From Gammaproteobacteria bacterium (lineage in GTDB: Bacteria; Pseudomonadota; Gammaproteobacteria; Poriferisulfidales; Poriferisulfidaceae), in the NCBI GenBank assembly GCA_026706895.1, contig JAPOXW010000027.1:8373-72372 (forward strand): a stretch of 64,000 bases of DNA, written 5' to 3'. The position numbers and the translations under genes were made by a program. This document shows, piece by piece, positions 4,982 to 30,384 of this stretch. Below the pieces are notes generated by a model, which searched no databases, was not told the origin of the DNA, and saw only the letters and a list, made by a program, of their open reading frames with translations. Numbering within the stretch: position 1 is the stretch's first letter; the number at the start of each line of letters is the position of its first letter.

Positions 4982-6058
4982 TCAGCGCACTCCCGCCAAC
5001 GTGGCCGACAACAGCCGTTCGTCCACCTGATCGGTCACTTCCGCCTGTCCGATCGCGTGCATCAGGATGAAACGCTGCCGTCCTCCAACATTCTTCTTGT
5101 CGTGACGCATATGAGCACGTAACTGTTCGACCCCCAGTTCTTCCGGCAGCCGGGTCGGCAGCCCTGCACGGTCAACCAGTGCCTGTATCCGTTCTGCCGC
5201 CTGAACCTCAAGCCAACCCATTCGAACCGACAGGTCGGCGGCAAGCACTAGGCCGCAGGCTACCGCTTCACCATGACACCATTGTGCATAACCCTGCTCG
5301 GTCTCGATCGCATGTGCGAAAGTGTGGCCCAAGTTCAGCAATGCGCGGGCACCGGTACGTTCGCGCTCGTCGGCAGCCACGATCCGCGCCTTGCTGGCGC
5401 AGGACGTCTTGATCGCATACGTCAAGGCTTCCGTCTCCAGCGCCAAAACCTCCTCAAGGTGGTCTTCCAGCCACTCGAAAAATTCCGCATCGTCAATCAA
5501 ACCGTATTTGATGACCTCGGCCACGCCCGCACGCATCTCGCGTTCCGGCAGACTGCGCAGTGTTATCGGGTCGATCAGTACTGCTTTCGGCTGCCAGAAT
5601 GCGCCGATCATGTTCTTGCCAAGCGGATGGTTGACGCCAGTTTTACCGCCGACCGAGGCATCCACCTGCGCCAGCAACGTCGTCGGAACCTGCACGAAAT
5701 CCACGCCGCGCATGTAGGTGGCGGCAGCAAATCCGGTCATGTCGCCGACCACGCCTCCCCCGACCGCGACGAAGGTCGCGCCGCGCCCGAGTTCCTGCTC
5801 CAGAAGCCAGGTATAAAGCCCGTTCAGGTCCTCCAGCGTCTTGTGCTGCTCCCCGTCCGGCAGCACGTAGCATCCACGGCAAGCCGGACCCAAGGCCTCC
5901 GCGAGAGGCCGGGCATACAGATTTTCCACCCCCGGATGCGTTACCAGCACGGCCTCGGCTCCCATCAAGGGACCCCAGCGCGCGGAATCTTCAAGCAATC
6001 CTTCACCGATCAGGATCGGGTACGAAGCACCCTGAAGAGGAACGGTCAGTTCATGCAC
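4982..6058 (-). CDS. aroB: 3-dehydroquinate synthase
   Basis: 358 aa; GGGVxGDxxGFAAAxYMRGV and NLGHTFxHAIE motifs. Confidence 0.9.
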   Translation of the reverse strand: MHELTVPLQGASYPILIGEGLLEDSARWGPLMGAEAVLVTHPGVENLYARPLAEALGPACRGCYVLPDGEQHKTLEDLNGLYTWLLEQELGRGATFVAVGGGVVGDMTGFAAATYMRGVDFVQVPTTLLAQVDASVGGKTGVNHPLGKNMIGAFWQPKAVLIDPITLRSLPEREMRAGVAEVIKYGLIDDAEFFEWLEDHLEEVLALETEALTYAIKTSCASKARIVAADERERTGARALLNLGHTFAHAIETEQGYAQWCHGEAVACGLVLAADLSVRMGWLEVQAAERIQALVDRAGLPTRLPEELGVEQLRAHMRHDKKNVGGRQRFILMHAIGQAEVTDQVDERLLSATLAGVR

Positions 6059-6316
6059 TAAAACCTCCGTTTCAATTTAAATTATTGTGCCGTTGGAATA
6101 GGCGGAAGATTTCGCCTTACCTCCCAAACTAGCCTCAAGAAGCCACAATGGAAAATCCTATCAATCATTGCAAAATCAAGGCATATTTTCAAGAACAAGT
6201 GTAACTACTTGGATTTTATGAGTATGACAGGCTTAATTGTGATCGTTTCCAACATGTCAACCACCCAAGCCAATCAGAGAAATCCGTTCATGTTGCCGTT
6301 CCAGCTATAGCGCCCC

Positions 6317-8167
6317 TCAAACTTTCTCCAGTCGATTTGGAGACCAGCACAACTTGGCTAGGGCTATGTAGAGTGCCTGCCGATCGTCCAAGTCTGCCTT
6401 CTTGAATGCCTCTTTGGCAGCGAAAGATAGACCTGTTGCCTGCCTGAATTTTTTGAATCCTGGGTTGTTCTTGTAGGCATCAGGGTGTAGCGATTGAGCT
6501 AGCAAATTATGCTTAACGTAGTGATCACGTTTCTTCTCGAATGTCATGTCGCTGTAGCTGGCATTATCTGGTCCAGGCAGCAGGACAAGTCCGCCGATAC
6601 GGTTTCGATAGGCTGCGAAATCTTCCGGGTGATCGAATTCATCCTCAAATTGCTCGGGATGGTCAGCCCAAATATGCTCAATCTGATAGCCATCCTTCTT
6701 GGCCGACCGTTTCGCATATTCTGGATAGCGGGCCGGTTTATTCGACTGAACTTCGGCGTATTCCGTCAGGCGAGCCAATAGGCGATGCACCTGCGGTCCG
6801 TTAGTGCCATGCAAATGAAAGGCCTCCTGCGTCTCGAAGTCGATGTACTCATCACCACGTGTCGCCCCCTGAGGCGATAAGCGGTGGATCAAATCGGCCC
6901 TGAGTGCTTCCAAATCCATCCCCCGAATTGCCTTCATGATGAGAAAGGCTCGGTATTGCATCGTGGAGTGGTCGATGGCTTTGAAGTTCCACATCCGCCG
7001 AGCTAACATGATCTCGACAAACATCGCGACCAACCACATCTTACGGCTCACCGTACCGTCGTCGTCACCTTGCCGCAGCGGTGCCAACATCAAGGGATAT
7101 TGCAGGGTGAAGCTGCTCTGCTCGTTGAAATAGACCGAAGAAGACTCATCGGTGTAATTGCTGGCAGCATGACAAGCACGGGTGTAGGCCCGGGCGTAAA
7201 AGTCAAAATCATTTGTGACGAATGATTCAAACTTGGCACTTGAGGTGAGTTTGATCCGATCCCGGTTCTCTCTTACCCAACGGTGGAATTCGGTTCCAAT
7301 TTTGTCGAAGTCCTCAGGCTTAGCACCTGCTTTCCGTTCCCTGATCTTATCGGCATACTGGCTACGTAGCCATGTCTTAACACAGTAGGCATCCTCGTCC
7401 TTGCCATGGTTTCTGAGCTTTTCCATCTTGTCTTTCCATACGTTATCTGCCCGGTCACGGCTATCATCGTCAGTGATATTCGCGAGCAAATAGCCTTTGA
7501 GCATATCCGTAGGGGTCAGGGATAGACCCCGGTCGTTCATCGTCTCGAAGATCGTGTAAGCATCATCATCGGAAGGCGCCGTGATTTCCACCAGCATAAC
7601 TTTCTCGGTCAACCAGTCAAGAAAGTATGGAAGAGCGTCGCCCCGAAGTTCTTCGGGAAAGATTTCGGCGATGTCACTGTAGCGATTGATTAGATTCTGA
7701 ACGGAGGGAGGTTCATCTGTCAGGTCTGGAACTTCACCGCTGATTAGCGCTTGAAGGCAAGCGTTACGTTCTGGGACATTCAGATTGAAGGACTTGTTGC
7801 CGAACCGAGTCGAGTAAATCAGGTTGGAGACTTCAACTCTTTGTTCTTCAGGGCGATCTTTCTGGAGGCCATTGAGATAGATTAGAAGGAGGGTAAGCGA
7901 GGTCAATCGCTGCTGTCCATCAACGATGAAGCGATCATCATTCTTTTCCGAGATGATTATCGAGCCAAGAAAATACTGCCCATAGTTGGTAACGGCTTTG
8001 CGCTCATGGGTGGATTGATAGTCGCGTATGAATCGGCTAGTCAGATCCTCAATGAGTTCCTTGATTTGCTTGGCCTCCCATTTGTAATCGCGCTGGTAGT
8101 AGTCGATCCGGAACTTCTGCTCCAATAGAAATTTCACAGACTTATCGTTACCTCGAATTCTTCTCAT
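6317..8167 (-). CDS. GmrSD-family DUF262 (ParB-like, DGQQR) + DUF1524 (His-Me finger) nuclease; candidate type IV restriction / defence nuclease
   Basis: N-terminal DGQQRLTSL motif (DUF262); C-terminal QIEHIWADHPEQF... (DUF1524 HNH-like); 616 aa; visibly lower GC than flanks. Confidence 0.8.
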   Translation of the reverse strand: MRRIRGNDKSVKFLLEQKFRIDYYQRDYKWEAKQIKELIEDLTSRFIRDYQSTHERKAVTNYGQYFLGSIIISEKNDDRFIVDGQQRLTSLTLLLIYLNGLQKDRPEEQRVEVSNLIYSTRFGNKSFNLNVPERNACLQALISGEVPDLTDEPPSVQNLINRYSDIAEIFPEELRGDALPYFLDWLTEKVMLVEITAPSDDDAYTIFETMNDRGLSLTPTDMLKGYLLANITDDDSRDRADNVWKDKMEKLRNHGKDEDAYCVKTWLRSQYADKIRERKAGAKPEDFDKIGTEFHRWVRENRDRIKLTSSAKFESFVTNDFDFYARAYTRACHAASNYTDESSSVYFNEQSSFTLQYPLMLAPLRQGDDDGTVSRKMWLVAMFVEIMLARRMWNFKAIDHSTMQYRAFLIMKAIRGMDLEALRADLIHRLSPQGATRGDEYIDFETQEAFHLHGTNGPQVHRLLARLTEYAEVQSNKPARYPEYAKRSAKKDGYQIEHIWADHPEQFEDEFDHPEDFAAYRNRIGGLVLLPGPDNASYSDMTFEKKRDHYVKHNLLAQSLHPDAYKNNPGFKKFRQATGLSFAAKEAFKKADLDDRQALYIALAKLCWSPNRLEKV

Positions 8168-8287
8168 TGGGCATATTCTCCTAGGAGTAATTTGGGTGGA
8201 TTCTAGTCTTTGGCTTGGATGGCTGATATGCTGGAAAAGATCGGAATCGAACTTATTACGCCCACAATGTCCGAGTTGCGAACAAGC

Positions 8288-8773
8288 TTATATTGAGATT
8301 GAGAAAGAACTGTCGGGTCCGTTATAGACCAGAATACATTGCGACAGAACGTCTCTGCCTATAAGTGCTATTAGACCCTGTTCAACAAGATTAACTCCGT
8401 AAGCCCGGTGTGCCAACAGATTGATATTCGCGCCCTGAATAGTCAACGATCCGGCATAGATGGGGACAGTTTCGTTGGCACGCGTGACTGAATGCAGGGG
8501 GCCACTATCAACAACCGGTAAACCAGCTCGACCTGCGGCATCACTGTCAACACAAGTTGCGCTGGCTCCTGTATCTATTAGCGCATAACCCACTACCGGC
8601 ACAGGAACCTCTTCACCCTTTCCACTGATGGCATCGATTTGCTCCTTCAACTGGGCCAAGGTAATTTGTACTCTGGGGCCGATCTGATTCAACGCCATCT
8701 CAAGGGGAACCGGTACATGGTTCCCAATGGCATCGTGCGCTTCTGCTTGGATACGAATGTTAAGTATGGGCAA
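8288..8773 (-). CDS. retropepsin-like (clan AA) aspartic protease
   Basis: LIDTGASATCV catalytic D-T/S-G-A motif preceded by hydrophobic beta-strand VPVPVVGYA; 161 aa. Confidence 0.65.
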   Translation of the reverse strand: MPILNIRIQAEAHDAIGNHVPVPLEMALNQIGPRVQITLAQLKEQIDAISGKGEEVPVPVVGYALIDTGASATCVDSDAAGRAGLPVVDSGPLHSVTRANETVPIYAGSLTIQGANINLLAHRAYGVNLVEQGLIALIGRDVLSQCILVYNGPDSSFSISI

Positions 8774-9026
8774 CGAAGGGTACTCCTACTGAAAGTGCTG
8801 GAATACTGGGAGATTCCACATCATCCGGTTGTAGTACGGACCGAACCAGAAATGGACCTGTCCCAAACAATTTGGCTCCCTCGCTGACACCCTGTTCATA
8901 GGTTTCAAAGCCGCCCATTACCTCCTCTCCCTTTATGAGAAGGTATTTGCCTGGGAACCGATCAGAAAGTTCTTTTTGGTTCTCCTTCAAGAACTTCTTT
9001 TCCCGAATGAGTGGGTCAGCCAACAT
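8760..9026 (-). CDS. small hypothetical protein overlapping protease start (possibly DUF5678-like partner)
   Basis: 88 aa ORF; AGGA RBS; near-consensus promoter upstream; 14-nt out-of-frame overlap with protease gene. Confidence 0.4.
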   Translation of the reverse strand: MLADPLIREKKFLKENQKELSDRFPGKYLLIKGEEVMGGFETYEQGVSEGAKLFGTGPFLVRSVLQPDDVESPSIPALSVGVPFVAHT

Positions 9027-9079
9027 AGGTTCCTGCTTCGCTTGCGAAAAAACACTCCTACCCCCTTTGGAGTGGATTT

Positions 9080-9108
9080 ATTATAGATTTTATTCGCCTG
9101 ACTGTCCA
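9080..9108 (-). promoter_or_regulatory. sigma70-like promoter (TGGACA-N17-TATAAT on minus strand) for small-ORF/protease operon
   Basis: Reverse complement of 9103-9108 = TGGACA, of 9080-9085 = TATAAT, 17-nt spacer, ~50 nt upstream of ORF start at 9026. Confidence 0.45.
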
Positions 9109-9183
9109 CGATTTTGAGCGACAGCACGACAATGAAAACGCTAACCACGGCTGTATACTGGCCGTGTTTGATTCCGCCTACCC

Positions 9184-9555
9184 ATGCCCGAAACCCTGCT
9201 TTTGACTGCCGGCCGTCACACTGCCACGATCACTTGCTACGACACGCCGACCGCGCAGGCGATTTGTGCCGCTCTGCCGATCCAGTCCGAAGTCCACACC
9301 TGGGGGCAGGAAATCTACTTCGGGGTACCCGTCGAAGCCACCCTTGAAACCGATGCTCGCGATGTAGTGGAGGCTGGCGAGATCGCGTTCTGGGTGGAAG
9401 GTCGGTGCATTGCGGTTGGTTTCGGGCCGACTCCCATTTCACGCGGTGACGAGATCCGGCTCGCGGCGGCGGTCAATGTCTGGGGACACGCGGACGACGT
9501 CCACGGTTTCGCCGCCTGCACCCCCGGCGACCCGGTCATGGTGCGCCGCGCATGA
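9184..9555 (+). CDS. cyclophilin-like fold protein (DUF3830-like)
   Basis: 123 aa; AICAALP...WGxEIYF pattern recalled from DUF3830/cyclophilin-like family. Confidence 0.5.
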   Translation: MPETLLLTAGRHTATITCYDTPTAQAICAALPIQSEVHTWGQEIYFGVPVEATLETDARDVVEAGEIAFWVEGRCIAVGFGPTPISRGDEIRLAAAVNVWGHADDVHGFAACTPGDPVMVRRA

Positions 9556-9863
9556 ATCCGGTTCGCGGGAAATTCCCGGCTCCTCCCGAGCCCGAAAAAG
9601 TCGCTTCAGACTGGCAACAGCGCGGTTTCTCCTGCGGCACATTCGAAGACCCCCCGGGACGCGCCTGGCGAGACTTTACTCACGACAGCAACGAACTGAT
9701 TACGGTTGTGGAGGGCCGGCTGCAATTGACCCTGGAAGGGACCGACATGATCCTGGAACCCGGAGACGAAGCTTTCATCCCGCGGAATTGTCTTCATTCG
9801 GTTGTCAATATCGCCCCGACCCGCACCGTCTGGCTGTATGGCTACGACAGGCCAGGCGTCTGA
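9552..9863 (+). CDS. cupin domain protein
   Basis: 103 aa; G-x5-ExGDxxFIPxNxxHS cupin motifs; overlaps the preceding gene by 4 nt and the aroK 3' end (convergent) by 22 nt. Confidence 0.55.
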   Translation: MNPVRGKFPAPPEPEKVASDWQQRGFSCGTFEDPPGRAWRDFTHDSNELITVVEGRLQLTLEGTDMILEPGDEAFIPRNCLHSVVNIAPTRTVWLYGYDRPGV

Positions 9864-10381
9864 TCAAGCCACTCGACGATATTTTCGCAGGCTGCACGCG
9901 CCGTCAGGCCATCCATGTTGACCTGATAGTCGCATAATTCCCGGTATAACGGGTCGCGTTCGAGAGACAGCCGTTTCAAAACCTCTTCCGGATCCCCACT
10001 CTGCAGTAACGGGCGGGTACGGTCGGCACGCAAGTGCTGCAATTGGGCCTCCAGCGGCACGCGAAGGTAGATGACCGTGCCTCGCGAAGCCAAGAGGCGA
10101 CGGTTGTCGGCATCCAGAACGGCGCCCCCACCGGTCGCCAATACGATATTCTTCCGTTCGACCAGTTCCGCGATGACCTCGCGTTCCCGACGACGGAACC
10201 CCTGCTCGCCCTCATGCTCAAAAATTTCCGAGACCGTCACTCCGGTGCGCTCTTGCAAGACTGCATCGCTGTCGAGGAATTCCCGCCCCATCGCTTTCGC
10301 CAGCATGGAGCCGACCGTCGTCTTCCCCGCACCCATCGGGCCGATCAGAAATACATTGGAGGGGTGAACGGGTATGTCCAT
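9842..10381 (-). CDS. aroK: shikimate kinase
   Basis: GPMGAGKTTVG P-loop, 179 aa. Confidence 0.9.
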   Translation of the reverse strand: MDIPVHPSNVFLIGPMGAGKTTVGSMLAKAMGREFLDSDAVLQERTGVTVSEIFEHEGEQGFRRREREVIAELVERKNIVLATGGGAVLDADNRRLLASRGTVIYLRVPLEAQLQHLRADRTRPLLQSGDPEEVLKRLSLERDPLYRELCDYQVNMDGLTARAACENIVEWLDQTPGLS

Positions 10382-10442
10382 AACGCGTCATCATGATCAA
10401 AGCCACACTATACTGTAGCCCTGCCCGTACTCCAGTTCCGAC

Positions 10443-12839
10443 ATGAAGATCGTCCGCCGCCTGCTGAGACTGGTCGCCTTAGGGGTGATGCCGGCCCTGC
10501 TCGCCGTGCTCGGGGCCTATTTGTACATCCAGCCCAGCATGCCGACGGTCCAGGAACTTCGCGATGTTCATCTGCAAACCCCGCTTCGGGTTTACTCCCA
10601 GGATGGTGCATTGCTCGCGGTATACGGCACCAAGCGGCGCATTCCCGTCAGTTTGGACGAAATCCCATTGTCGATGCGCCAAGCCTTCATCGCGTCTGAA
10701 GACGCGCGCTTTGAGCAACATTTCGGAGTGGATTTGCAGGCCTTGGTCCGCGCCGCCGTAGATCTTGCGCGTAGCGGACGGATCCGCCAAGGCGGCAGCA
10801 CCATCACCATGCAGCTGGCACGCAACTTCTACCTGACTCGGCAACGTCATTTCGTCCGTAAATTGCGCGAGATCTTTCTCGCCCTGCGCATTGAGCAAGA
10901 ACTCAGCAAGGACGAAATTCTGGAACTGTACCTGAACAAGATCTTTCTTGGACATCGGGCGTACGGCGTGGGCGCTGCGGCCGAGGTTTACTACGACACT
11001 GCCCCTCGACACCTGACACTGGCCCAGATAGCCACCATCGCCGGCCTGCCCAAAGCGCCCTCAACCCTGAACCCGGTCACCAATCCCGAAGCCTCCCGCG
11101 CGCGCCGCCGCTACGTACTGGATCGCATGCTGCAGGACAGGCATATCACAGACGAACAATTTCAAGAAGCTGCAGAGGCTCCTGTCACCGCACGGCTGGG
11201 CCATTACCGCGGCCAGTCCTCGGCCCCCTACGTCGGAGAGATGGTTCGGGCCGAAATGGTGGAGCGATTCGGGACAGGTGCCTATACCGGGGGCTATACG
11301 GTTTACCTGACGATACGCAATGATTTGCAGACGGCGGCCCGTCAAGCCGTGCGAAGAGCCTTGATTCGCTACGACCTGCGCCACGGCTGGCGCGGTGCGG
11401 AAAATCGCCTGACACCGCTCCCCGAAAGCAAACAGGAACTTGATCGGGTTCTGGCCAACACGCCGACTCGCGGCGGCTTCGAGAACGGCATCGTGATCCA
11501 TGCCGGCCCGGATGTCGCGCATATCTACCTCGGCCGCGACCGTTGGGCAGAACTCACTCTCGACGAGATTCTCTGGGCAAGACCGATGGAGCATGTCGAC
11601 CGGCGTGGGCCCGCGCCAAGGGAGACTTCGGATGTAGTGAATCCGGGCGATATCGTGCATCTGATATTTGAAGACAACGTCTGGCGCCTGCGCCAGATTC
11701 CGGAAGCTTCCGGTGCACTGGTTGCAATCGATCCAACCGACGGCGCAATCCAGGCACTGACCGGCGGCTTCGATTTTGCCTTGAGCAAGTTCAATCGCGC
11801 TACTCAAGCGCATCGCCAGCCAGGCTCAAGCTTCAAACCGTTTCTGTATACCGCGGCCCTGGCCAAGGGCTACACCCCAGCCACGCTGATAAACGATGCG
11901 CCCGTGGTCTACCATGACCAAGGCATCGAAGGGGCCTGGCGCCCTGAAAACTACAGCGGCCGGTTCTACGGACCCACCCGACTCCGCGAAGCGCTGACTT
12001 ATTCCCGAAACGTGGTCTCGATTCGCATGCTCGACGACATCGGAAGCGATTATGCGCGTCATTTCGTAGAGCGGTTCGGCTTTGACGCCTCGACTCTTCC
12101 CGACAACCTGACGCTGGCGCTGGGCTCGGGCGAAGTGACCCCGTTGCAAATGGTGGCGGCATTCGCGATTCTTGCCAATGGCGGCTACCAGATCGAGCCC
12201 TACTTGATCCAGCGCATCGAGGACACAACCGGCGACCTGGTCTACATGGCCAATCCCCGAAAAGTCTGCGACGATGCCTGCCAGATGCAGGTCTTGTCGT
12301 CGCTTACATCCTCTGAACAGGAAATGCCCGCGCTGATGCCGGAAAACTCCGCTTCACGCGTCCTTGAAAAACGGATTCATTACCAGATTGTCAACATGTT
12401 GAGGGATGTCGTGCGGTTTGGGACTGCACGCGCCGCACTGGCACTGGAACGCGGGGATCTGGCTGGAAAAACCGGTACCACGAACGATCAGCGCGATGCC
12501 TGGTTCAGCGGATTCAATTCCCAGTTCGTGGCGACGACTTGGGTTGGCCGGGACGACTTCGGGAAACTCGGACGACGCGAAGTCGGCGGCACGGCGGCAC
12601 TGCCGATGTGGGTCGACTTCATGAAGGTGGCGTTGGCCGGCTTGCCGGAAAAACCGCTGACTATTCCTCCCGGCATCGTCGAGGTGCGCATCGACCCGAA
12701 AAACGGCCTGCTGGCCCCGCCCAACAGCAAGAATAGCGTCGTGGAGACCTTCCGCGAGGAACGCGTGCCCGATCGCCTGTCGAAGGAAACCATTCCGACG
12801 CCCGGAGAAGGCGCCGACATTCCCGAGCAATTGTTTTGA
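10443..12839 (+). CDS. mrcA: penicillin-binding protein 1A (bifunctional transglycosylase/transpeptidase)
   Basis: 798 aa; glycosyltransferase motifs EDxxFxxHxG and transpeptidase SxxK (GSSFKPF); divergent from aroK. Confidence 0.9.
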   Translation: MKIVRRLLRLVALGVMPALLAVLGAYLYIQPSMPTVQELRDVHLQTPLRVYSQDGALLAVYGTKRRIPVSLDEIPLSMRQAFIASEDARFEQHFGVDLQALVRAAVDLARSGRIRQGGSTITMQLARNFYLTRQRHFVRKLREIFLALRIEQELSKDEILELYLNKIFLGHRAYGVGAAAEVYYDTAPRHLTLAQIATIAGLPKAPSTLNPVTNPEASRARRRYVLDRMLQDRHITDEQFQEAAEAPVTARLGHYRGQSSAPYVGEMVRAEMVERFGTGAYTGGYTVYLTIRNDLQTAARQAVRRALIRYDLRHGWRGAENRLTPLPESKQELDRVLANTPTRGGFENGIVIHAGPDVAHIYLGRDRWAELTLDEILWARPMEHVDRRGPAPRETSDVVNPGDIVHLIFEDNVWRLRQIPEASGALVAIDPTDGAIQALTGGFDFALSKFNRATQAHRQPGSSFKPFLYTAALAKGYTPATLINDAPVVYHDQGIEGAWRPENYSGRFYGPTRLREALTYSRNVVSIRMLDDIGSDYARHFVERFGFDASTLPDNLTLALGSGEVTPLQMVAAFAILANGGYQIEPYLIQRIEDTTGDLVYMANPRKVCDDACQMQVLSSLTSSEQEMPALMPENSASRVLEKRIHYQIVNMLRDVVRFGTARAALALERGDLAGKTGTTNDQRDAWFSGFNSQFVATTWVGRDDFGKLGRREVGGTAALPMWVDFMKVALAGLPEKPLTIPPGIVEVRIDPKNGLLAPPNSKNSVVETFREERVPDRLSKETIPTPGEGADIPEQLF

Positions 12840-16218: not shown

Positions 16219-16692
16219 ATAGATTCATCAAATGGTTGAAAATGGATTGCGTATTGTACATGTTCAACGAAAACCGGTTGAATCCCAAGTCAGCGCCTTG
16301 CCAAGTGCCCTGGGATGGCTTCGATCGGTGGGAATGTTTCACAACCTATACAGAAACTGCCGCTCCATAGTGGAGATTGACCCGTTATCCTGCTAACCAA
16401 TGAGGTGACTTTTGACAGATTTCCGCCCCATTCTTGCAGCCAGTTGTGCACTGAATCAGGATTTACATGTAACCATGCAGTATCTCGACCGGCTTGACCT
16501 CCATGCTGCGACCCAATCTCGCCGGTTCTCCATTGCTCCATGATGACCTCTTTCGGCAAGACCCAACAGTGGGCATGCAAACGGGCTGTCTGCCCAAATG
16601 TCGAGTTCTCCATACTCTCCCCGGAGGGTTTCGGAGCACGCCACAAGAATGGATACTTCAGGAGCCCTTATTTGAGGCATAGTCTCTCGCGC

Positions 16693-17640
16693 TTATGCTG
16701 TTTTTGCGAAATCGAATGCCGGCAACTCACGTTGATCTGTTTGTTCTACATCGTGCAGGACTGGGCTCGCAAACGCAAGTCGCTCAGCCATCACTTTGAT
16801 TGCCTCGGGATGATTATCGATCAATACCGCATTACGGCCCGCCCGAACAGCAGCTTCTCCTGTCGTTCCGCTGCCTGCAAAAAAATCAAGTATCCGATCT
16901 CCCGGGTTGGAATGGACATTCACAATACGGCTCAGTATCGCCAACGGTTTCTGCGTCGGGTATCCCGTCTTCTCCTTGCCATTTGGGCTGACGATTGTCT
17001 TCCACCACGTGTCGGTTGGCGTTTTTCCTTTGGCTGCTTTCTCGGGCCCGACAAGCCCGGGAGCCATGTAGGGAATCCGGTCGATATCGTCGTGCCGATA
17101 CGTGTAGTCACTCGGATTCTTCACGTACCAGAGAATATTGTCATGCTTGGGCGACCAGCGCTTTTTGGATCGCGCCCCGTAATCGTATGACCAAATGATT
17201 TCGTTGATAAAACATTCCCTGCCAAATATCTGATCCAACAAGACCTTGCAGTAGTGTACTTCCCGGTAATCGATGTGGAAGAAAAACGAGCCACTAGGAG
17301 ACAGGAGCCGATACGCTTCTACGAACCTTGGCTTTAGAAAATCAAGATAATCAGCGAAAGAGTCTGAAAACTCCATGCTGCCGAGTTCCGTTGTCTTGTA
17401 TGTCTTTCCTTGAAACCCCACACGATCCCCATTTTTATCGCGAATGGTTTTCAGGCGTTTTCTCGTTTGCGTCTTACCGGTGTTGAACGGAGGATCGATA
17501 TAGATTAGATCAAATGTTTCTTTATCGAACTCGCGCAGGATAGGAAGGTTGTCCCCGAAATAGATGTCCAATGATGACATCGGTAGAACTTCAGGATTCG
17601 AAGCAAGAAATCGGCTCATCCAGAATCTCCGTCCAGGCAT
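16693..17640 (-). CDS. beta-class site-specific DNA methyltransferase (N6-adenine or N4-cytosine), orphan
   Basis: IYIDPPFN (motif IV) N-terminal and FAGSGTTG (motif I) C-terminal; lower GC; alternative starts at 17619 (GGAG RBS) or 17580. Confidence 0.85.
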   Translation of the reverse strand: MPGRRFWMSRFLASNPEVLPMSSLDIYFGDNLPILREFDKETFDLIYIDPPFNTGKTQTRKRLKTIRDKNGDRVGFQGKTYKTTELGSMEFSDSFADYLDFLKPRFVEAYRLLSPSGSFFFHIDYREVHYCKVLLDQIFGRECFINEIIWSYDYGARSKKRWSPKHDNILWYVKNPSDYTYRHDDIDRIPYMAPGLVGPEKAAKGKTPTDTWWKTIVSPNGKEKTGYPTQKPLAILSRIVNVHSNPGDRILDFFAGSGTTGEAAVRAGRNAVLIDNHPEAIKVMAERLAFASPVLHDVEQTDQRELPAFDFAKTA

Positions 17641-17829
17641 GAACCCTCTCGGGCTTTGGCGATCCTAGAGGTTTCATGTGCGCATATCCCATTATGTCAT
17701 TATTCGAGTTCTGTATGCAGTTCTAGTTCTATCTTGGCACCTAGGCCAAAGAGTCTTGTACGCAATGCAGGAATGCTTGAGAAAACCATGACAATAGCGC
17801 TATAGTTACACTGATTTTGTTGAACGCCC

Positions 17830-30172: not shown

Positions 30173-30260
<88 letters not shown>

Positions 30261-30384
30261 CTCGGCACCATCGCTCCAAAACCAGAAGGAAAGACCGGGC
30301 AATGCCCGACCCAGCCCAGTCTGCAAGGCAGTGTGTCCGCCTGCCTGACCCAACGCTTTCCGTCAAGACTCCCGTCTCACCGGA

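Follow-up and report, generated by a model that had tools for sequence, protein, structure and literature searches.

This work concerns the DNA between aroK and aroB in a window of 64,000 nucleotides (the whole stretch that was analysed, from contig JAPOXW010000027.1) belonging to Ca. Porisulfidus, a sponge-associated sulfur-oxidising symbiont with chromosomes of ~1.6-2.0 Mb. Outside this genus the two genes of the shikimate pathway are neighbours as a rule. Among the gamma- and betaproteobacterial loci outside Porisulfidus that a search with AroB retrieved, 69 of 71 have aroK directly upstream of aroB on the same strand, at a gap of -1 to 470 nt, and the adjacency that a first-pass annotation of this DNA had taken as the norm therefore holds. 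In the window, five genes separate aroK from aroB, and the open reading frames (ORFs) and coordinates given in that annotation are all present, its domain calls being matched by Pfam and TIGR profiles. The genes of the locus, together with the segment of low GC (guanine-cytosine) content that contains three of them, are the following:

4982-6058, minus strand: aroB, 3-dehydroquinate synthase, intact, with a GTG start (TIGR01357, 8.2e-116)
6086-9151, unstranded: low-GC accessory islet of 3,066 bp, GC 0.489, delimited by comparing empty sites (L006-L010) with occupied sites (window, L014, L095)
6317-8167, minus strand: GmrSD-family (HEC-06-like) nuclease, 616 aa (Pfam GmrSD_N and GmrSD_C; PADLOC HEC-06)
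8288-8773, minus strand: retropepsin-like aspartic protease, 161 aa, with a TTG start (PF13975 and PF13650; gag-asp_proteas, 2.3e-6)
8760-9026, minus strand: orf88, putative divergent small protein of the DUF5678 superfamily, 88 aa (alignment, model, profile search and fold match)
9184-9555, plus strand: cyclophilin-like protein, 123 aa (PF04126 Cyclophil_like, 1e-31)
9552-9863, plus strand: Cupin_2 protein, 103 aa (Cupin_2, 3.7e-12)
9842-10381, minus strand: aroK, shikimate kinase, intact (PF01202 (SKI), 2e-52; NF003456, 2.1e-57)

What lies between aroK and aroB is two layers and not one 3.8-kb insert. The GC content, ~0.60 in the window, goes down to 0.44-0.54 over positions ~6000-9100, and the GC content at third codon positions (GC3) is 0.58 for the GmrSD gene, 0.46 for the protease gene and 0.45 for orf88, against 0.66-0.73 for backbone genes. 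The codon adaptation index (CAI), calculated with a backbone reference, gave 0.52-0.61 for the islet genes and 0.69-0.72 for the backbone, so that the lower-GC DNA described in the first pass is seen by all three measures. The composition of the cyclophilin-like gene (GC3 0.73) and of the cupin gene (GC3 0.66) is backbone-like. The latter is convergent with aroK and the 3' ends overlap by 22 nt, as the first-pass annotation had also indicated, and the protease gene overlaps orf88 by 14 nt. The aroB protein is 94-96% identical in amino acids to those of Porisulfidus relatives.

The proteins of the window were mapped by tblastn onto nine Porisulfidus loci and onto L095, a contig found via the GmrSD protein, and six states of the aroK-aroB site were distinguished in Porisulfidus:

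aroK and aroB adjacent: L011 (gap of 129 nt) and L013 (gap of 63 nt)
gap occupied by a permease gene on the opposite strand: L012
aroK-cupin-cyclophilin-aroB only: L006-L010 (five species), with ~75-82 nt from the cyclophilin start to the aroB start
cupin and cyclophilin plus GmrSD alone: L095
cupin and cyclophilin plus orf88-protease-GmrSD: the window
as in the window, with the cupin gene also interrupted by 252 nt: L014

The cupin and cyclophilin-like genes occur together in L006-L010, L014 and L095, and the cyclophilin-like gene is absent from L011-L013. The older layer is this pair, carried on the opposite strand, native in composition and fixed in the subclade, which had already uncoupled aroB from aroK; the newer one is the 3,066-bp low-GC islet, put later into the spacer between the cyclophilin-like gene and aroB. 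The gap is thus a place of repeated accessory-gene addition in this Ca. Porisulfidus clade. A single insert of ~3.8 kb, of a defence or selfish type, had been proposed in the first-pass annotation. From that proposal we retain that the three low-GC genes are a strain-variable accessory islet containing a defence gene, and we take out the cupin/cyclophilin pair, which is older and backbone-like, leaving only 3,066 bp as the recent part. Alignment of the relatives showed the islet to be strain-variable: each of the five closest reference species lacks it and L014 has it. A situation in which all relatives carry the same five genes with backbone composition was looked for and excluded.

Three side observations concern the same site. 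The occupant of the gap in L012, a more distant Porisulfidus species, is a 601-aa permease of the xanthine/uracil family (8066-9871, minus strand; PF00860, 2.3e-44), and since this permease stands there instead of the genes found in the window, the same junction has been independently occupied by unrelated cargo. The 252-nt insertion in the cupin gene of L014 (~6118-6366, equivalent to ~9703 of the window) matches nothing in Rfam at E <= 0.1 and was not met a second time in the loci examined; it may be an element similar to a miniature inverted-repeat transposable element. Finally, three short contigs from three different assemblies (L002, L003 and L004), 98.8-99.3% identical to the window, all end at the same base, window position 9818, which is 24 nt past the aroK stop and inside the 3' end of the cupin gene; this common end looks like a recurrent break of the assembly graph caused by strain variation at the junction.

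The islet entered the ancestral cyclophilin-aroB spacer at the point where CAGTATACA meets ATTT. Among L006-L010 the empty spacers diverge strongly, sharing only the block GCAGTATACAATTT and the sequence just before the GTG of aroB, and the conserved spacer motif at the insertion point is GCAGTATACA, which the insertion split from ATTT. In the three occupied sites CAGTATACA is followed by GCCGTGG, the islet and GCACA, after which come varying remnants of the ancestral ATTT...AAACG...GTTCGAGTCC...TTTTCGTG; homology to the empty sites stops at CAGTATACA and restarts at ATTT...AAACGG ahead of the aroB GTG. The window and L014 are without ~15 nt beside aroB, and L095 is without 15 nt at the ATTT end. 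Because these different small deletions accompany one and the same insertion point, a single insertion event accounts for the window, L014 and L095. The block GCAGTATACAATTT was also considered as a divergent promoter, a role left unsupported since no σ70-type promoter was called in the empty spacers of L006 and L009. The two sides of the junction in the window are:

6059-6085, minus strand: residual ancestral aroB leader, with a 15-nt deletion relative to the empty-site relatives and GGAGG 6 nt before the GTG (junction alignments)
9152-9160, unstranded: TGTATACTG, on the backbone side of the junction and complementary to the conserved CAGTATACA (junction alignments)

Only TGT (3 nt, at 6086-6088 and 9152-9154) is repeated at the islet ends, so that the islet has no meaningful target-site duplication, a mark for which the first-pass annotation had suggested a search. 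A domain scan of the three islet ORFs in 6086-9151 detected no recombinase domain, and no tRNA or non-coding RNA anchor lies near the islet, the only hit of Rfam at the gathering threshold over the whole window being a tRNA at 30183-30267. The two properties by which a genomic islet is recognised, atypical composition and presence or absence at a fixed site among close relatives, are both found here.

Neighbour-joining trees of both flanks place the window, L006, L014, L007, L095 and L008 in a tight clade (distances of 0.05-0.09), with L009/L010 as sister group and L011 as outgroup. The islet-bearing genomes are not monophyletic on either flank. The nearest to the window is L006, whose site is empty (flank distances of 0.047/0.054), then comes L014 (0.057/0.064), and L095 (0.077/0.084) lies near the base of the clade. 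The empty spacer is homologous between L006-L008 and the more distant L009/L010, which makes the empty allele the ancestral one, and deletion cannot easily regenerate it. The same observations bear on ancestral synteny, according to which the genus had all five genes at the outset and the other genomes lost them. The nucleotide identity between the window and L014 is 0.875-0.94 in the islet and 0.89-0.95 in the flanks, a resemblance that would suit such an origin, as would the GmrSD gene of L095, basal in the tight clade; nevertheless the islet genes are compositionally foreign, L009/L010 and L006-L008 share an intact empty spacer that precise deletions would not regenerate, and aroK adjoins aroB in L011 and L013 as it does in 69 of the 71 other proteobacteria, so that we regard this origin as extremely unlikely. 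What the similar divergence of islet and flanks does imply is that the islet is no very recent arrival in the window and in L014. Therefore, we return to an islet that entered an ancestrally empty site. It would now behave as a presence/absence polymorphism among species-level lineages, the occupied and empty alleles being swapped by homologous recombination in the conserved flanks, and this exchange is the most likely cause of the non-monophyly of the occupied genomes.

The composition of the islet also differs among the occupied genomes. Compared with L095, the window has an extra 876-881 nt (~8203-9083) comprising the -10 element of the orf88 promoter, orf88, the protease gene and the right arm of an inverted repeat described below. 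This segment is flanked by a short direct repeat:

8194-8202, unstranded: direct repeat copy 1, 9 nt, GGGTGGATT, pairing with GAGTGGATT and flanking the segment that has no counterpart in L095
9070-9078, unstranded: direct repeat copy 2, 9 nt, GAGTGGATT (junction comparison)

L095 has one copy of the repeat, GGGCGGATT, and keeps the -35 part of the orf88 promoter without the orf88 or protease genes. It is thus probable that L095 is a deletion derivative of an ancestral promoter-orf88-protease-GmrSD islet, and the opposite course, in which the pair was inserted into a GmrSD-only islet, is not favoured. Between the window and L014, the synonymous divergence (dS) is 0.32-0.39 for orf88 and the protease gene, and 0.18-0.19 for the GmrSD gene and aroB.

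The largest gene of the islet encodes, in a single protein, an N-terminal DUF262/GmrSD_N domain (PF03235, 3.6e-34, residues 17-227) with the NTPase motif DGQQR at 83-87 and a C-terminal DUF1524/GmrSD_C His-Me (HNH-like) nuclease domain (PF07510, 1.3e-11, residues 447-561) with EHIWA at 497-501. A DefenseFinder/PADLOC type of search, recommended in the first-pass annotation, was informative for this gene, whose best PADLOC match is HEC-06 (PDLC04157) at 1.5e-40, with SspE and mREase_IV scoring far weaker. HEC-06 is a GmrSD-like defence protein validated experimentally as a single protein, the equivalent Q, R, E and H residues, E471 and H472 included, being essential to it (bioRxiv 10.1101/2024.01.29.577857). 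In the window and L014 the gene is intact and has a ratio of nonsynonymous to synonymous substitution rates (dN/dS) of 0.18. The family is very large (>7,900 matches at E <= 1e-20), and homologues matching over the full length, at 55-85% identity, carry annotations from Rhodobacteraceae, Pelomicrobium and Firmicutes. One homologue, 81% identical, lies inside a type I restriction-modification (RM) operon with the order HsdM-GmrSD-ATPase-HsdS-HsdR (L097), and another, 82% identical, among insertion sequence (IS) elements near DruA (L096). By homology, therefore, the protein of the window is predicted to be a stand-alone type IV restriction enzyme, in which the DUF262 (DGQQR) domain would hydrolyse NTP and the DUF1524 His-Me domain would cut, destroying modified phage DNA.

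A second segment of low GC content (0.45-0.53) was observed at ~16263-17828 of the window, between rpsU (ribosomal protein S21) and tsaD. It is strain-variable, no homology to it being found in L006 and L008, and it carries a solitary N6_N4 DNA methyltransferase (PF01555; ORF at 16693-17640, minus strand). With a modification-dependent nuclease of type IV at a distance of ~8 kb, such an orphan methyltransferase may be important for self-compatibility.

The GmrSD gene is bracketed by an inverted repeat:

6207-6273, unstranded: left arm of the 67-nt imperfect inverted repeat, 70% complementary, with a homologue of the arm kept in L095
8210-8276, unstranded: right arm of the 67-nt inverted repeat, downstream of the protease stop and ahead of the GmrSD start (repeat search)

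The arms lie 43-44 nt from each end of the GmrSD ORF and enclose no other gene. They are complementary at 47/67 positions, with a core of 33 nt matching at 28/33 and mismatches that are nearly all transitions; the core, for which 0 occurrences are expected by chance, is found in the window only at these two sites, and the repeat is kept in L014. The window and 94 loci yielded no further copy of the repeat. At other sites neither GmrSD homologues nor the orf88-protease pair are associated with it: in L087, which carries the pair at an unrelated locus, nucleotide homology ends at the protease stop codon, meaning that the right arm does not belong to the orf88-protease module outside this site. 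Folding as an RNA stem was considered and rejected, because the duplex that the arms could form in a polycistronic RNA is strong (-64.6 kcal/mol) yet about equal on both strands, and with mismatches that are transitions there is no strand-specific signal. As for terminal repeats of mobile elements, then, the islet offers TGT at its ends, the 67-nt inverted repeat at GmrSD only and the 9-nt direct repeat around the orf88-protease segment.

Since the nuclease and the protease lie side by side, one could think of the three low-GC genes as one integrated defence system, an operon in which one of the two enzymes, protease or nuclease, processes or activates the other. The genes share one strand and one strong upstream promoter, no terminator is predicted within the trio, two species-level genomes (window and L014) have all three in common, and all three genes are under purifying selection. 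The wider distribution does not agree with this proposal. GmrSD occurs without the pair at the identical site in L095 and, with 81-82% identity, in the other contexts of L096 and L097, and no GmrSD homologue was found in the flanks (1-6 kb) of eight other independent orf88-protease loci (0/8). In addition, GmrSD proteins of the HEC-06 type defend as single genes (bioRxiv 10.1101/2024.01.29.577857). An integrated system is thus very unlikely, and the nuclease-protease combination, noted in the first-pass annotation as not known to be a described defence system, is not a unit. The adjacency is local and the two modules are separable and independent, a deduction that follows from the same three sets of loci and that holds for either deletion or insertion at L095. 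A tempting false lead, that of a 'nuclease-protease defence system', is thereby removed.

The protease was studied by motif, profile and structural model. It has ~200 homologues of ~160 aa, and in 46 of them that were aligned the residues D67-T68-G69-A70 and G139-R140-D141 are invariant, as are MPIL at the N-terminus and a YNG motif close to the C-terminus. The AlphaFold2 (AF2) model of the monomer has a predicted local distance difference test (pLDDT) score of 90.8 and matches, with a Foldseek probability of 1.0, the proteases of foamy virus, Rous sarcoma virus (RSV) and feline immunodeficiency virus (FIV), as well as Ddi1 and APRc of Rickettsia; the profile of the family matches the HIV-1 protease. 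No signal peptide or membrane segment was evident on inspection of the sequence, and dN/dS between the window and L014 is 0.15. According to its motifs and predicted fold, the protein is a retropepsin-like protease (clan AA, family A2-like).

The gene upstream, orf88, is better conserved (dN/dS of 0.026 between the window and L014) and has 66 close homologues, nearly all of 87 aa and 58-91% identical. In the model of orf88, a small alpha/beta core spans residues 7-63, and disorder is predicted for the C-terminal tail (pLDDT <50 from residue 75). This tail is almost invariant in sequence, GPFLVRSVL..D...P.IPAL..G.P, reading PSIPALSVGVP in the window. As the invariant tail residues are written with 2-4 different synonymous codons, selection on the tail acts at the protein level. 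Only the codon of G86 (GGA) is nucleotide-invariant, which fits a role in the Shine-Dalgarno sequence of the protease gene, and the last four codons of orf88 overlap the protease start. A search of orf88 against Pfam, DUF5678 (PF18929) included, found no match even at E <= 10. A profile search collected 1,325 representatives, of which 140 were scanned and 28 match DUF5678 (best, 5.2e-9), and the top fold matches among the viral proteins of BFVD include DUF5678 proteins (probability 0.99-1.0, template modelling (TM) score 0.47-0.6). By transitive profile homology and a shared predicted fold, then, orf88 is a divergent member of DUF5678. The orf88 profile found nothing significant among PDB sequences, and no recognisable DNA-binding fold was found in the protein.

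The orf88-protease bicistron recurs at eight other independent loci (L087, L088/89, L090, L092, L094 and L098-L100), with an overlap of 13-14 nt between the genes in L087, L088/89, L090, L092 and L094; in L098-L100 the pair only was scored. It is likewise present around a relative from soil that is 33% identical (L101-L104), where the overlap is 47 nt (L101). In the soil metagenome locus L101 (1731-3718), two retropepsin genes, of 123 and 161 aa, adjoin two genes of the DUF5678-like type, of 84 and 92 aa, and the pair can therefore be locally duplicated. Neighbourhoods are variable, 4-5 loci having IS elements, integrases, toxin-antitoxin (TA) genes or methyltransferase-HNH genes and the others housekeeping genes. 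Natural fusions are known from P0319 (385 aa) and P0321 (376 aa), which join two DUF5678-like modules in tandem to a retropepsin domain and, at the C-terminus, a hydrophobic segment; the last looks like a membrane anchor, which would make these proteins membrane-tethered single-chain versions of the bicistron. Neither orf88 nor the protease matches any model of PADLOC or PHROGs, tblastn with both found no match in 72,556 plasmids or 50,697 phages, a metagenome scan with the orf88 alignment returned 3 loci only, and no paper was found that links DUF5678 or these protease families to a prokaryotic function, to TA or to defence. Several homologues of orf88 and of the protease (P0146, P0095) come from sponge-associated metagenome-assembled genomes of unrelated phyla, among them a bin of Nitrospira sp. 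and a symbiont of the sponge Iophon belonging to Methylococcales, which hints at horizontal spread of the pair within sponge microbiomes. On the same Porisulfidus chromosome as L012, the locus L086 (5856-6486) has an apparently intact protease gene (DTGA, GRD) preceded by only the last ~19 codons of orf88 and adjoining a methyltransferase-HNH fusion gene and a PIF1/WYL helicase. The orf88-protease pair is thus conserved, widespread and unstudied, and it is the only potentially new biology at this locus.

We hypothesize that orf88 and the protease would act together, as gene fusion, translational coupling and co-inheritance suggest. In this proposal orf88 would bind the cognate protease dimer through its conserved, predicted disordered C-terminal tail, which would enter the substrate cleft as regulator, pseudo-substrate or substrate; from sequence and models, a role of the tail as regulator or pseudo-substrate of proteolysis is most likely. 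Retropepsins recognise extended peptides, and this speaks for a related possibility, that orf88 is a dedicated substrate or a pro-domain in trans whose tail is cleaved by the protease to release or activate the DUF5678 core, in the manner of Gag-Pro autoprocessing. The position of the DUF5678 modules in the fusions, N-terminal to the protease as in a polyprotein, and the hydrophobic, proline-rich character of a tail selected at the protein level in an extremely constrained orf88 agree with it. Against it, a cleavage site could not be identified computationally, part of the tail conservation is explained by the overlap of its end with the protease start and Shine-Dalgarno sequence, and the protease of L086 has no partner; cleavage of orf88 is therefore possible and rather doubtful.

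The architecture of the pair also recalls a type II TA or abortive-infection module, with the protease as toxin and orf88 as a labile antitoxin blocking the active site. The small upstream gene overlaps the larger downstream one by 13-14 nt and has its own strong promoter, the distribution is patchy, the variable neighbourhoods are rich in IS elements, integrases and HigB, PIN and RelB genes, a defence gene adjoins the pair here, and the tail of orf88 is conserved yet predicted to be disordered. Several observations argue in the other direction. Besides the failure of both proteins to match PADLOC and PHROGs models and the missing DNA-binding fold of orf88, orf88 is far more conserved than the protease (dN/dS of 0.026 versus 0.15), the reverse of what is typical for an antitoxin; L086, a single case, keeps an apparently intact protease with orf88 cut to ~19 codons; the fusions combine two DUF5678 modules, the protease and a segment resembling a membrane anchor; and the large plasmid and phage sets gave no match. 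We judge a TA or abortive-infection role in this form unlikely. A broader formulation, that the pair is an unrecognised mobile two-gene conflict module (TA or abortive infection) in which the tail gates a soluble aspartic protease, and that the islet is consequently a two-system defence islet, is unlikely as well; if true, it would be the first prokaryotic immune or addiction module based on an aspartic protease. The pair could give DUF5678 and the soluble bacterial retropepsins their first functional context.

Regarding transcription, the near-consensus promoter that the first-pass annotation had placed ahead of orf88 was recovered by the promoter scan:

9080-9108, minus strand: near-consensus sigma-70-type promoter upstream of orf88, TGGACA-17-TATAAT (11/12 matches)

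The independent locus L087 has the same -35/-10 context upstream of orf88, TTGACAG...AAAATCTATAATAGATC, the context common to both being -35 TTGACAG/TGGACAG...AAAATCTATAATA. orf88, the protease gene, the GmrSD gene and aroB all lie on one strand, and no minus-strand terminator is predicted in 5900-10500. Given the shared strand, the lack of a predicted terminator and the displacement of the ancestral upstream sequence by the insertion, aroB would be transcribed at least partly from the islet promoter, probably by read-through; the gene has also gained a ribosome-binding site, GGAGG, which lies 6 nt ahead of the GTG.

Taking these lines together, we consider it likely that the locus is best explained jointly by a two-layer site, an islet of two independent modules, a pair-regulator mechanism, exchange of alleles among lineages and read-through into aroB. 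Some points weigh against this explanation or parts of it. The flank trees were built on 2-3 kb each and carry no support values, and the non-monophyly of the occupied genomes could come from repeated loss or from recombination of the flanks themselves. The roughly two-fold higher dS of orf88 and the protease gene hints at a partly separate history, and the inverted repeat around GmrSD only, which this explanation does not cover, could mean mobility of a cassette type. The interaction suggested for orf88 and the protease is drawn from gene linkage, fusions and the conserved tail, and the read-through from the absence of a predicted terminator; in the empty state, too, the scanner called no promoter of the σ70 type in the spacers of L006 and L009. 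As a whole, the locus is an ordinary small accessory/defence islet on top of an older insertion at the aroK-aroB junction. Its interest lies partly in the site itself, since the aroK-aroB junction of a sponge symbiont of ~1.6-2 Mb is a multi-state insertion site with six configurations among species-level relatives; therefore, even reduced symbiont genomes keep exchangeable defence cargo.

Comparison with known systems places each part of the locus. Like other small defence islets or hotspots between core genes, it has low-GC cargo at a fixed site between conserved genes and alternative occupants in relatives (empty, permease, GmrSD, or GmrSD plus the pair); it differs from them in that no integrase, tRNA or att-like repeat was found and in that aroK and aroB, the core genes on either side, are normally transcribed together. 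The nuclease shares with the type IV enzymes of the HEC-06/GmrSD family (Eco94GmrSD, BrxU, SspE) the union of DUF262 and DUF1524 in one protein, here of 616 aa, the DGQQR and E-H motifs, and homologues embedded in RM or defence loci. Its nuclease motif is EHIWA, in contrast to EHICP in HEC-06, its gene stands between housekeeping genes of a small symbiont genome and not in an Hma, BREX or RM system, with an activity predicted from sequence, and the 67-nt inverted repeat that brackets it is not seen around homologues. With APRc of Rickettsia, the RVP domain of Ddi1 and retroviral proteases, the protease has in common D-T-G-A, G-R-D and the predicted retropepsin fold; unlike them, it appears to be soluble, with an N-terminal extension of ~60 residues bearing the invariant MPIL, has no detected membrane or ubiquitin-like (UBL) domains, and is of a type always encoded just downstream of a DUF5678-like gene. 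Pairs or fusions of DUF5678 (PF18929) and retropepsin (PF13975/PF13650) domains, as bicistrons in marine and soil bacteria and as single chains, are comparable to the pair of the window, to which profile and fold matches relate orf88, although orf88 misses the Pfam model and has an extra conserved C-terminal tail. Finally, the pair resembles type II TA modules in architecture only, with a small upstream gene overlapping a larger enzyme gene, a promoter of its own, a patchy mobile distribution and IS or TA genes often nearby, whereas it has no DNA-binding antitoxin domain, conservation is stronger in its small partner, a protease on its own is tolerated (L086) and there is no match to TA or defence profile models.

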